In this document: in pieces, positions 27,171 to 61,135 of the stretch
Position numbering within the stretch: position 1 is the stretch's first letter
How the letters are laid out: each line of letters starts with the position of its first letter
Assembly: GCA_030390025.1 (NCBI GenBank)
Contig: CM059431.1
Location: 151,034,001 to 151,098,000 of the forward strand
From: Squalus acanthias
Taxonomy: Eukaryota
Direction: 5' to 3'
Length of the DNA: 64,000 bases
Notes under the pieces: model-generated
Databases searched by the model: none
Told to the model about the DNA's origin: nothing
What the model saw: only the letters and a program-made list of their open reading frames with translations
Translations under genes and position numbers: made by a program

Positions 27171-28460
27171 TCTCCACCAGTAATGTTAGACTATGTTCAC
27201 CAACAGTAATATTAGAGTGGGGTCAGGACTAGTAATTATATTGTCGAGCCACCGCCGGTAAAGTTAGAGAAGTGTAATCACCAGTTATGTAAGAGTGGGA
27301 TCACCAGCTTTAATGTTAGTGTAGGGTCACCACCAGTTTTGTTAATGGAAGATCACCACAAGTAATGTTAGAATAGGGTCACCACCAGTAATGTTAGAGT
27401 CGCGTCACCACCAGTAATGTTAGTGTACAGTCACTACCAGTAACGATAGATTAGATTCAGCAGCGGTAATGTTAGAAAAGATTCACCACCAGTAATGTTA
27501 GAGTAGACTAAACTCCAGTAACGTGAGACTAACCAACAGTAATGTTAGAGTGCGGTCACAACCAATAATGTTAGAGTATTGTCACAGTCAGTAATGTTGG
27601 ACTCGTGTCAACACCAGTAATGTTATTGTACAGTCACCGCAATTAACGTTAGAATAGGATCACCACCACATATATTAGAGTAGGGTCAATACGAGCAATG
27701 TTACTGTAGAGTCACCACCAGTAATGTTAGAGTGGAATCATCCCAGTACTGTTAATTTAAGGTCACCAGCAGTAATGTTAGGGTAGGGTCAATACCAGCA
27801 AAGTTACACTAGAGTCACCACCAGCAATGTTTGATTAGAGTCACCACCAGTATTGTTAGATTAGCGTCAGTACAGGTAATGTTCGAATAGGGTCACCATC
27901 AATAATGTTAGAATAGAGCCAGCACCAGTAATGTTAGAGTACGTTCACCACCAGTAATGATAGAGTAGATTCACCAACAGCAATGTTAGAGTGCAGTCAA
28001 CGGCTGTAAGTCATGAGTAGAGTCACCACACGTAATGTGAGAGTAGGGTCACTTCTAGTAATGTTAGAGCAGGATCATCACCTCTAATGTTCGTGTAGGG
28101 TCTTCATCAATAATCTTCAATTGAGTCATGACCAGTACTGTTAGAGTAGGTTCACCACCTGTAATTGCCGAGCAGAGCCACCACCAGTAATGTTACAATA
28201 GGGTCATCAGCAGTAATCTTACTGTCGGATCACCACCAGTAATATTAGAGTTGACACATCACCATTAATGTTAGATGTTGGCCAATACCAGTAATATTAG
28301 TGTAGGATCACCACCAGTAATATTAGAGTAGAATCATCACCATTAATGTTAGATGTTGGCCAATACCAGTAATATTAGTGTAGGATCACCACCAGTAATA
28401 TTAGAGAAGGGTGACCACCAGTAATGTTAGGGCAGAGTCATCAACAGTAACGTTAAAGCG
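27171..28460 (+). repeat. 26-bp tandem array, consensus GTCACCACCAGTAATGTTAGAGTAGG, ~50 units
   Basis: Head-to-tail units, e.g. gtcaccaccagtaatgttagagtcgc / gtcaccaccagtaatgttagtgtaca at 27378-27429. No unique spacers. Confidence 0.96.
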
Positions 28461-28464
28461 TTAC

Positions 28465-28836
28465 TTATGTAATGGATGAGAGAAGATTTCACCAAATTAT
28501 GTGAGGCCCTGAGAAGCTAACACAGGGTCTTGGAGAGATGTTCCCTTCAGGGTTCACATGGCTGGCGTAGAGCACATTCCCTCTGGAATTAACTCCCTTT
28601 CATTGTTTTTAATGGACGGAGTTTCATGGACTCAGCTGTACAATTTCCCCATTGGGCGCACTGAAGCGGAAAATCGCCCGTTGTTTGTTAAGTGGCTGTA
28701 CCTAAGTTCAATTATTGTGGAACCTGATTTTCTCGCCAGGGCACGGATTGTTCTATAAAGGGGGAGCATTTACGGATCTCAGATACAAGCCAGTCGGAAC
28801 TGTAAAGCAGGACAGAATTCACACAGTCTTCTAAAA
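28465..28836 (+). promoter_or_regulatory. Putative proximal promoter and 5'UTR of GPCR copy 1 (TATAAA at 28754-28759)
   Basis: Colinear with 57087-57441. Shares ttctataaagggggagcattt 83 bp upstream of the ATG (82 bp in copy 3) and caatttccccattgg (reverse CCAAT). Confidence 0.7.
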
Positions 28837-59229: not shown

Positions 59230-59658
59230 AACTTCCTGTCCTAACCAGAGCTCAATTGCAGCCCGTGCTCCGCTTTAGAATGGCCCTCGATCTGCTACCA
59301 CGACAATGGATTGTTCTGTTTAAATAAACAGGTACCAGGAAAGATTTTCTCCACTTTGTTCCTTGTGTTTGATGTCTGCTTCTTTCCCCGCGTGAACATA
59401 ATCGGTTTCTCCTAAAACAGCGCCCTTCCCACAAATGATTCAAAGGGAACAGTCATGATTGAGCTTCAGTAGTGTAGTGGAATATGTGGACGTCAGCGTT
59501 AACTGCCTCACACGACAGGTACTGAAATGACACGCTCAGGTGAATTAGCAGATACAGTTCTTTCTAGTGTAGAAACAGTGAAGGTTTTACAATCCTTGCC
59601 ATTTTACTTCTTCTGTAATCATGCGATCGCTGATCTCCCCATCAGACTCCGATCCCAG

Positions 59659-59756
59659 TGTCTCCTGGACCAATAGAACGGGGCCCTGTCTCCTGATCAG
59701 TGTCTAATGATGGAGACAGTAGGAACCTGACTCGTCAATGAGACATTAGACATCTT
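59659..59756 (+). other. Conserved non-coding element downstream of GPCR copy 3
   Basis: 95/98 identical to 31487-31584; contains CCAAT and two interleaved inverted repeats. Confidence 0.8.
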
Positions 59757-61135
59757 AGTTCACAGATACTAACATAAAACCTCAACTGGTCATCAATATG
59801 TTGGAATGTTATAACTGGGGAACTGACCATTCGACCAATCAGTCGTTGTCGCCGTTCAGCCTCCACCTGAGCAAAAGGAACGAATCAAGTTCCCGGCTCT
59901 GCCTCGACATGTCTTCAATCTATTTTTATTCCTGGATTTACCCAATTTAATCTTGAATATTGGTATAATTTCTGCCTTTGTGAATTCCACAGCCGGACGA
60001 CACTCCGTGCATGGAGATATTTCTCTTGCCCTCAGTTCTAAATTCCTTACATGTATTCTTTAATCTCTGACCGTTAGTTCTTGATCCCTCAATTAATGGG
60101 AGTAGTCTGCTTGTGTCGATCCTGTCCCGAAACATAGGGACCAGGCAGGGAGCTATTCTAATCATAAGACCCCGATCATTTGCTACATGTCCAGAAATGG
60201 CAGGGATGGTATTTTATGATATGTTTCTTGCTGTAAGTTCTTGGGATATCACTTTGTGTGCAGAAGTGCCTTGTTGCATGTGAAGCATCCAGTACACAAT
60301 ATGCATCATGAATATGCCCTGAAGAACGGGTGCAGGACAGAGTCGGTCACGCTGACAACATGGCTACAGGAAACGATTACTGTATCTCTGGAGAGTGAGG
60401 ATACAGGTAAAAGCAATGGGTAGAGATCTGGGTCGAATAAGAGACCGAGATAGATATATGATGCTGATGAGATATAGTTTAATATTGGCCTTTAATACTC
60501 TTACACCTAAAAAGGGTCACTGTAAAGAAAGCATTCAATAGACTGTCCTGACGTCTGCTAATGTTGTACTCTATTGGTTACTCTTCATATAGTAGTAATT
60601 CTAACCATAAGTCTTTATCTATTCAACGAGGAAGCAAACGTCAGCTTAAAGTTCCACTCGGTTGCTGGGCCAGGATTGACTCTGCAAGTATGTTAAGGTT
60701 CAGTGTGATGTAATAATGAGACTTAAGTAAAGTCTGATTCATAAATTTCAGAGATCTTTAATCATTTGGCAACAGAGTGGGAAGGTATCAGTTCAGCCAT
60801 GGGAAGTATCTGGGCAAACATCAACATTTTGAATTGACAGCGGCGATACAGAAACAAAGATGTATTTATAATTCACGATATCAAGCGGGCTGGTATTCAA
60901 TGCACGTCATGCTACAGTTATGCAGAGACTTGTTCAGACCCCATCTGGAGTGCTTCATTCGGTATTGGGCACCGCACGGATATATTGGTCTTGAAGCAGG
61001 TGCAGAGTAAAAATCGCCATTAAATTAAAATCTAACAGACCACGGTCCCCGCGTGATTCGGAAGGTGAAGGGACTTGGATAAATAAATGGATGAAGATAG
61101 TCAGGTGTATAAAGCATCAATGCTTTCACAAGCAG

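Follow-up and report, generated by a model that had tools for sequence, protein, structure and literature searches.

The known receptors most similar to those considered here are GPR139 and GPR142 (PDB 7VUG, 9M42), class A G-protein-coupled receptors (GPCRs) that are activated by L-Trp and L-Phe. Three orphan subtypes have been placed beside these two receptors, and two of them are called GPR210A and GPR210B (Rinne et al. 2019, PMC6504862). The GPR210 subtypes occur in gar, fishes and coelacanth; the passage that describes them names no shark expansion and contains the word 'shark' 0 times. The window analysed here is a 64,000-nucleotide stretch of Squalus acanthias DNA (C7:151,034,001-151,098,000) from a genome of 3.71 Gb, and the homologues of its receptors come from sharks and rays. 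Three receptor paralogues, A, B and C, lie inside 30.4 kb of the window; C is intact, and A and B are broken. The window holds one copy of a multi-gene segmental duplication. The receptors belong to a family of two-exon class A GPCRs that numbers more than 1,000 loci, and this family is a cousin of GPR139 on a branch separate from both GPR139 and GPR142. Taken as a whole, the favoured explanation, in which the duplicon belongs to a separate family of more than 1,000 loci that likely serves as a chemical-sensor repertoire, is held at slightly better than even.

The size of the family is evident from a 20-nt exon-2 motif, which has 1,088 exact matches in the genome compared with 0 for the reversed control. 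Among the 100 matches listed, the motif forms clusters on C1, C3, C5, C6 and C7. With a second motif, 23 of 54 matches are recaptured in C7:137.0-144.95 Mb, which corresponds to ~100 loci in that interval. A protein search of the genome returns 4,688 first-look candidates, and the 129 candidates that were scored exhibit 69-100% identity. Sixty of the listed motif loci were sampled (40 of 43 on C7 and 20 of 57 elsewhere), and exon 2 is open in 37 and broken in 23 of them. The large lineage-specific multigene expansion that had been predicted for this locus is supported by the motif matches and the open loci; far more copies exist than the few in the window, and the balance of open and broken exon 2 copies is given for the sampled loci. 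In protein databases, 1,918 relatives are found at E<=1e-20 (sharks and rays throughout among the 120 listed), and 134 clusters at the 50% identity level are found at E<=1e-30. The relatives originate from sharks, rays, skates and one chimaera and are mostly named 'probable G-protein coupled receptor 139', an automatic label beneath which the family sits hidden. In the tree, shark and ray species have receptor subfamilies in common. The accessible literature, with subscription papers and several supplements outside the search, yielded no description of the expansion. The term 'GPR139' is absent from the main text of the Squalomix preprint that contains a tandem-gene survey, and no family member is named in the supplements of two catshark papers (PMC13188829, PMC13200729).

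The features of the window are arranged as follows.

13..27173, + strand: 15-bp satellite block, 43.7 kb in total, beginning left of the window and cutting into array 1
27174..28455, + strand: 26-bp tandem array 1, upstream of copy A, 49.6 units
28466..28836, + strand: copy A promoter, with the family-wide motif at ~28682-28705 and TATAAA at 28754-28759
28837..28906, + strand: copy A exon 1, ATG at 28837, 70 bp, GT donor
29403..30227, + strand: fragment of a CR1 long interspersed nuclear element (LINE) within the copy A intron
30464..31270, + strand: copy A exon 2, broken by a deletion from transmembrane helix 3 (TM3) to TM4, a stop and a frameshift
31487..31584, + strand: copy A 98-bp conserved element, 96.9% identical to its copy C counterpart
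37404..38001, + strand: further homologous block, 67-70% identical to 60191-60774
41140..45206, - strand: young CR1 LINE with endonuclease and reverse transcriptase domains and long open frames
52610..53505, - strand: copy B exon 2, a pseudogene with frameshifts and stops
54345..54414, - strand: copy B exon 1, ATG at 54414, promoter deleted, head to head with array 2
54439..57023, + strand: 26-bp tandem array 2, upstream of copy C, ~99 units
57060..57441, + strand: copy C promoter, with TATAAA at 57360-57365 and a degenerate family-wide motif (more than 2 mismatches)
57442..57511, + strand: copy C exon 1, ATG at 57442, 70 bp (23 codons and 1 base)
57512..58309, + strand: copy C phase-1 intron, GT..AG, 798 bp, at the same codon as in the true GPR139 of the genome
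58310..59229, + strand: copy C exon 2, which together with exon 1 encodes a 329-aa class A GPCR (7tm_1)
59400..59760, + strand: conserved non-coding 3' block of copy C, with the 98-bp core at 59659-59756
60016..60300, - strand: old CR1 relic, weak (E 1.8e-4)
60191..60774, + strand: further block, the counterpart of 37404-38001
63341..64000, - strand: 15-bp satellite, reversed, running on for ~60 kb past an assembly gap

Copies A and C are built on a common module, with identities of 81% in the promoter, 81% in exon 1, 79% in exon 2 and 96.9% in the 98-bp element. The block that follows the 98-bp element is 69% identical between the two copies and retains a weak CR1 reverse-transcriptase trace (31813-31980 on the A side, E 2.8e-5). 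The likeness of the modules is not due to chance because the module pieces align with blastn E values of 1e-39 to 1e-133. Coordinates and alignments thus bear out three two-exon paralogues, one intact and two dead, and the A/C module as originally described, with the correction that ~230 bp of the conserved 3' block, ahead of the 98-bp element, are missing from copy A.

The module is embedded in a larger unit. Six close paralogues of copy C, each read over 60 kb, share one gene order, in which opposite-orientation arrays at the left are followed by array-A, B, array-C and a common tail. Identity is 83-94% between these paralogous blocks and the window and reaches 98% among the blocks themselves, and the block of at least 50 kb is found at least 7 times in C7:150.5-153.3 Mb, window included. 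A single-gene cassette as the travelling unit, as put forward in the original prediction, is unsupported because the recent duplications copied a multi-gene block and the homology of all six blocks continues through the 26-bp arrays; the duplication breakpoints, which a satellite-coupled cassette would place in the repeat, do not lie there in these six blocks. Copy A is open in four of the seven blocks (four of the six paralogous blocks; broken in two and in the window), copy C is open in three (two paralogous blocks and the window; damaged in four), and copy B is open in none of the six blocks that keep it (five paralogous blocks and the window). From one block to the next, the survival or loss of A is independent of that of C, and the anticipated birth and death is directly seen in the differing open and broken states of A, B and C. 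The window thereby reveals the growth mode of the family, multi-gene duplicons with independent gene death, together with candidate control elements. Tandem and segmental duplication would have expanded one ancestral orphan receptor in cartilaginous fishes, and copy B may have lost its promoter at a head-to-head array junction. The genomic mechanism, consisting of duplicon growth, independent gene death and a passive, branch-specific array, is proposed with high confidence. The left half of the gene island (28445-38248) is 80-88% identical to the paralogous blocks and the right half (50192-63327) 88-94%; two duplicons may be combined in the window copy as a mosaic, or A may have died early.

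Copy C is a class A receptor by profile, with a 7tm_1 score of 69.1 bits against a cut-off of 30.5. It displays the class A marks, including seven helices, D2.50, D/E-R3.50, a cysteine pair between C3.25 and extracellular loop 2 (ECL2), N7.49 and Y7.53, and its structure model has a predicted local distance difference test (pLDDT) value of 73.5. A weak Srw-type profile match is also observed. The family profile retrieves human GPR139 as the top PDB entry (68 bits vs 53 for the next). A single-sequence PDB search lists GPR139 only tenth (E 1.5e-4), and fold search gives no resolution among class A receptors (TM 0.52-0.60). The true GPR139 of this genome occupies one separate locus on C18 and is 88% identical to a human entry, whereas copy C shares 18% identity with it and 18-21% with GPR139 and GPR142; a single GPR139 locus in this genome contrasts with the more than 1,000 loci of the family. 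The intron of the true GPR139 interrupts the same codon in the same phase as the family intron, at the A|N codon of TM1. The family shares this phase-1 TM1 intron with the GPR139/GPR142/GPR210 group, and its best profile match is GPR139. Unlike GPR139 and GPR142, the family possesses the C3.25/ECL2 cysteine pair and the TM6 WLT and TM7 NTCIY motifs. The GPR139 residues D2.61, E3.32 and R6.51 are described as agonist contacts in the available text of PMC12775434. In copy C these positions are Y, N and A, and among 59 members position 6.51 is never R or K and position 3.32 is never E. The contact residues are missing from the family, and Trp/Phe sensing is therefore not to be assumed.

A first, quick tree contained 67 rows, and approximately unbiased (AU) tests were performed on a careful 28-row tree that leaves out 39 of these rows. 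In the careful tree, the family forms one clade (95/94) that is sister to salamander genes (100/99), and GPR139 and GPR142 form their own clade (100/99). A family consisting of GPR139 duplicates, that is, a grouping of the family with GPR139 without GPR142, was rejected (p-AU 1.35e-28). The GPR139/142 membership that had been claimed is unsupported: the family is a separate branch and lacks E3.32 and R6.51. The sister gene is represented by one cluster per named amphibian species (20 amphibian clusters listed) and one sturgeon protein, and the single-copy amphibian counterpart can be studied in Xenopus (XP_031757816.1) or axolotl. Two single-locus orphan relatives in the genome, L132 (C17:37.41 Mb) and L133 (C9:120.53 Mb), carry the same TM1 intron. 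Three branches thus stand beside GPR139/142: the family with the amphibian genes, L132 with coelacanth, and L133 with anchovy and caecilian (98/97). This topology agrees with the three subtypes in the available text of Rinne et al. (PMC6504862), and the family and its amphibian and sturgeon sister probably belong to one of these GPR210-type subtypes; the candidate orthologues are the three coelacanth proteins ENSLACP00000014196, ENSLACP00000019189 and ENSLACP00000015589.

Selection was analysed in 59 distinct open exon-2 frames, kept from 90 loci, and 34 pocket-facing positions were picked by class A numbering. The ratio of nonsynonymous to synonymous substitution rates (dN/dS) is 0.48 for the 59 frames, with 0.32 in the inner half, 0.60 in the outer half and 0.66 at the pocket positions. 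The 38-member branch that carries the array exhibits values of 0.33, 0.58 and 0.81, respectively. Overall values are 0.47-0.48, and IQ-TREE and an independent fit agree on the 38-member branch. The inner half departs strongly from a ratio of 1 (twice the log-likelihood difference, 2dL, 506 and 1,405). The outer half comprises 47% of the sites and contains 29 of the 30 fastest, and pocket positions such as 3.32, 5.42 and 6.51 accommodate 8-10 different residues each. The inner-half constraint combined with varied pocket positions indicates that the members are constrained proteins with differing pockets. The open copies are under purifying selection in a pattern as in a ligand repertoire, and this pattern is chemoreceptor-like. 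Positive selection is weakly shown: in a grid mixture, a class above 1 improves the fit for the 59 frames (2dL 20.4), with four sites at a posterior probability (PP) above 0.9, all in the outer half.

Two non-coding elements accompany the receptors. A family-wide promoter motif of ~24 bp is located some 60-70 bp upstream of the TATA box and is observed on the sense strand in 39 of 62 loci, with 0 antisense and 0 reversed occurrences. It is common to the C1, C3, C6 and C7 subfamilies, whose promoters do not align, and has 346 exact matches genome-wide. The motif starts with a TRTTTGT core, which we take to be forkhead-like. In one C3 subfamily, the motif itself is tandem, with a 48-bp unit in 2-3 copies (L042:3862-3994, L041:3338-3436). 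The copy C promoter (57185-57320) lacks a 15-bp and a 7-bp stretch that are kept in 17 other paralogues, and the expression of copy C may differ or be lost. A degenerate O/E-like site recurs at one position immediately upstream of the TATA box.

The second element, the 98-bp element, is located downstream of exon 2. Its pairwise identity among 30 paralogues is 92%, compared with 77% at fourfold sites and 87% at codon positions 1 and 2, and the identity decays to 84-86% in three old truncated pseudogenes. A counterpart (71-75%) is present in two loci of an array-less sister subfamily, and the element is thus older than the array. Its 77 exact matches are distributed over C7:137-153.6 Mb, C29 and smaller contigs, and it is not a dispersed mobile element because most of these places carry receptor matches as well. 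A structured RNA was considered and rejected (no Rfam match; folding no stronger than in shuffled sequences, with z-scores of -0.75 to -1.65). An element independent of the gene was likewise rejected: the three copies upstream of other promoters are tails of truncated pseudogenes. The common core-promoter motif and the downstream 98-bp element could drive the members in one cell type. Contigs of sequencing run X1, a run only guessed to be RNA, cover the exons and the 3' region and hardly the promoter or the intron; no inference is drawn from this coverage, since contig depth does not rank the parts and the joints listed include no splice joint.

The family resembles the repertoires of odorant receptors (ORs), TAARs, V1Rs and V2Rs in its clustered multigene arrangement, birth and death, conserved inner face, variable pocket, short N-terminus and common proximal promoter motif. 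It differs from them in its ancestry, in the intron in the coding region and in showing no O/E or extended homeodomain enrichment. Judged from these sequence patterns, the family likely works as a chemical-sensor repertoire in which the signalling face is conserved and the ligand pockets differ. The members would keep the G-protein face and the common promoter design and vary the pocket, the expressing cell would be a chemosensory cell facing the water in the nose, taste organs, skin or gill, and the ligands may be small water-borne molecules or peptides other than the Trp and Phe of GPR139. The externally facing part of this role is about evenly balanced. In the available text of a catshark study (PMC11979771), the catshark repertoire comprises only 2 OR genes and 6 OR-like genes. 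The very small OR repertoires reported for cartilaginous fishes sit oddly with their use of chemical cues. A GPCR family of more than 1,000 loci under purifying selection makes this puzzle testable.

The following points weigh against the favoured explanation. Haplotype duplicates in the unplaced contigs may inflate the locus counts, and the rough two-motif estimate of ~2,500 loci genome-wide is extrapolated from one cluster and holds if the capture rate holds elsewhere. The sampled loci were chosen by exact motif, which biases them to intact copies, and their openness was scored on exon 2, with the intactness of exon 1 and the splice sites not scored. The degenerate promoter motif of copy C means that 'intact' refers to its reading frame only. 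A clade of the family, GPR139 and GPR142 is neither demonstrated nor rejected (p-AU 0.107); it is not the best tree, long branches meet in it, and the outgroup for this monophyly test consists of only 3-4 invertebrate-type proteins. A faster outer than inner half is common in GPCRs and does not discriminate between chemosensory, immune and endocrine receptors. The class above 1 is not significant in the 38-member branch (2dL 4.2), and gene conversion among paralogues can inflate the positive-selection test. In a scan of six promoter groups by consensus only, with no weight matrix, the O/E consensus of olfactory promoters (from the available text of PMC3247239) is not enriched, with best matches mostly at 2 or more mismatches, a level that is reached by 49% of background windows, and the extended homeodomain site is no better matched than background. 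Finally, in the available text of PMC11979771, the 50 genes ranked as most abundant and specific in a catshark 'brain and olfactory epithelium' library include no GPCR, although such a ranking would dilute the signal of a family whose expression is divided among many genes.

The same family and history would also fit internal sensors of microbial peptides or metabolites in immune cells, gut or gill epithelium, or germ cells, comparable to the formyl-peptide and MRGPR clusters. The selection pattern fits any ligand-diversified family, and the missing O/E and extended homeodomain signature agrees with an internal role, as does the putative forkhead-like core of the promoter motif. To our knowledge, however, hundreds of open frames are far above known internal GPCR clusters and typical of odorant receptors, and no immune-type evidence was found either. 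In favour of this reading, catshark V2R genes are expressed in testis and rectal gland as well, according to the available text of PMC11979771. An internal role is rather unlikely, yet the most probable of the rival explanations, and the family would be among the largest vertebrate GPCR expansions even if its role is internal.

The external, chemosensory reading can be extended to a bolder form, which is advanced tentatively and well short of an even chance. The family would then be an independent chemoreceptor family of sharks and rays with 1,000-2,500 loci, derived from one GPR210-type orphan that is kept single-copy in amphibians. It would use its own promoter code, the core motif with the 98-bp element as an enhancer, rather than O/E, and in one branch the TAAT-bearing 26-bp array would act as a tunable gene-choice element. 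If so, the family would be as large as the mammalian odorant repertoire and would overturn the view of sharks smelling with a few dozen receptors.

The 26-bp array is found upstream of 23 of the 24 C7 loci with a C-type promoter, and it is absent from 16 of 16 other C7 loci and 20 of 20 loci of other clusters (0/36 together); the array therefore marks one branch. The 30 best-scoring loci, a set that includes the window itself and at least four loci recurring in the 60-locus sample, carry the array in all 23 cases with the promoter in view. A 48-nt array dimer has 635 matches, none of them on C1-C6, and the first 100 listed lie throughout in C7:137.1-151.8 Mb. The earlier proposal that the array travels with the gene thus stands for the promoters of one branch and fails for the remaining C7 loci and the other clusters. 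Other subfamilies have their own, unrelated repeats upstream of exon 2 (L031-L035, L043, L049, L050), with 31-bp units in four C1 loci, 27-bp units in two C6 loci and 67-bp units in one C3 and one C6 locus.

The array could be a working part of the gene, that is, an enhancer, a chromatin element or a recombination site that moves a one-gene cassette within satellite DNA. Such a role, which is itself compatible with the other readings, draws on the fixed position and orientation of the array, whose last unit in 18 of 19 loci lies 369-533 bp away from the start codon (in the remaining locus the distance is 1,218 bp), and on its confinement to the C7 cluster among the matches listed. The TAAT positions are the best kept in the unit (0.91-0.93 vs a mean of 0.84 across 2,334 units), but this excess is small and the units are not independent. 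Tandem homeodomain sites raise odorant-receptor transgene expression in the available text of PMC7804114. Array pieces are present in sequencing runs from three coded organisms, and in run X2 a contig spans both array and promoter. The arrays also contain inverted segments and head-to-head junctions. However, open frames and the promoter motif persist without the array in the C7 sister subfamily and in each of the 20 loci from other clusters, the array length varies from a few units to several kb, and the homology of the recent duplicons runs on through the arrays. The 15-bp satellite, moreover, is missing from all 60 sampled loci and all six paralogous blocks. A working role is accordingly improbable, and the 26-bp array is likely a branch-specific passenger. 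It would have arisen once, in the ancestor of its branch, and been copied passively with each duplication, while its length and orientation shifted by unequal exchange; as a hitchhiker in that branch it would add local instability.

The location inside satellite DNA had been regarded as a family trait, a claim that is unsupported because the 15-bp satellite is absent from the sampled loci and the paralogous blocks. The satellite breaks into the window copy at two places, within array 1 and immediately after 63327, the point at which all six blocks cease to be homologous. It extends for 43.7 kb on the left and ~60 kb on the right, with an assembly gap 360 bp beyond the window end. No receptor lies at its two other exact sites, namely a 137-kb contig and a 60-kb region around C7:58.9 Mb. 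The satellite is an incidental feature of the setting, confined to this one duplicon copy. The contig C41:1-136663 is almost wholly 15-bp satellite, with a strand switch in mid-contig. The satellite unit is one base off the palindrome TCCCNNGGGA, which we take to be an EBF/O-E site; the palindrome occurs in 44 perfect and 580 one-off copies in the satellite block compared with 2 perfect copies in the gene island. This likeness is probably a coincidence because the satellite is uncommon and shows no association with the family. In human 19p12, beta-satellite is said, by the title of a 1998 report by Eichler, to be tied to the expansion of a KRAB zinc-finger cluster; the repeat described here differs in being a 26-bp minisatellite at a fixed promoter distance in one branch.

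Mainly neutral accumulation of duplicates in repeat-rich parts of the chromosomes, in which few members are of importance, would account for the 23 broken loci of the 60 sampled, the young CR1 insertions and recent large duplications, a pocket dN/dS near 1 that can reflect relaxation, and the tendency of larger elasmobranch genomes to more tandem copies (bioRxiv 10.1101/2025.06.08.657570, available text), but it is very improbable in view of the inner-half dN/dS of ~0.3, the non-coding elements conserved beyond neutral sites, the subfamilies common to shark and ray species and the 134 clusters in the databases.

The gene island also holds repeats. The young CR1 at 41140-45206 shares 98% identity with insertions that two paralogous blocks carry at other positions, and it represents a recently active LINE family that is reshaping the cluster. 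A tRNA-like sequence on the + strand (50279-50351; Rfam 39.6 bits, several broken pairs) is probably a pseudogene or the head of a short interspersed nuclear element (SINE). Tandem repeats with 36/22-bp and 95-bp units occupy 39228-39820 and 48460-48668, respectively. The 95-bp unit also occurs near C1 receptors and is likely part of a LINE 5' end. A 101-bp direct repeat (88%) is found at 61056-61156 and 63195-63295, near the right satellite junction.

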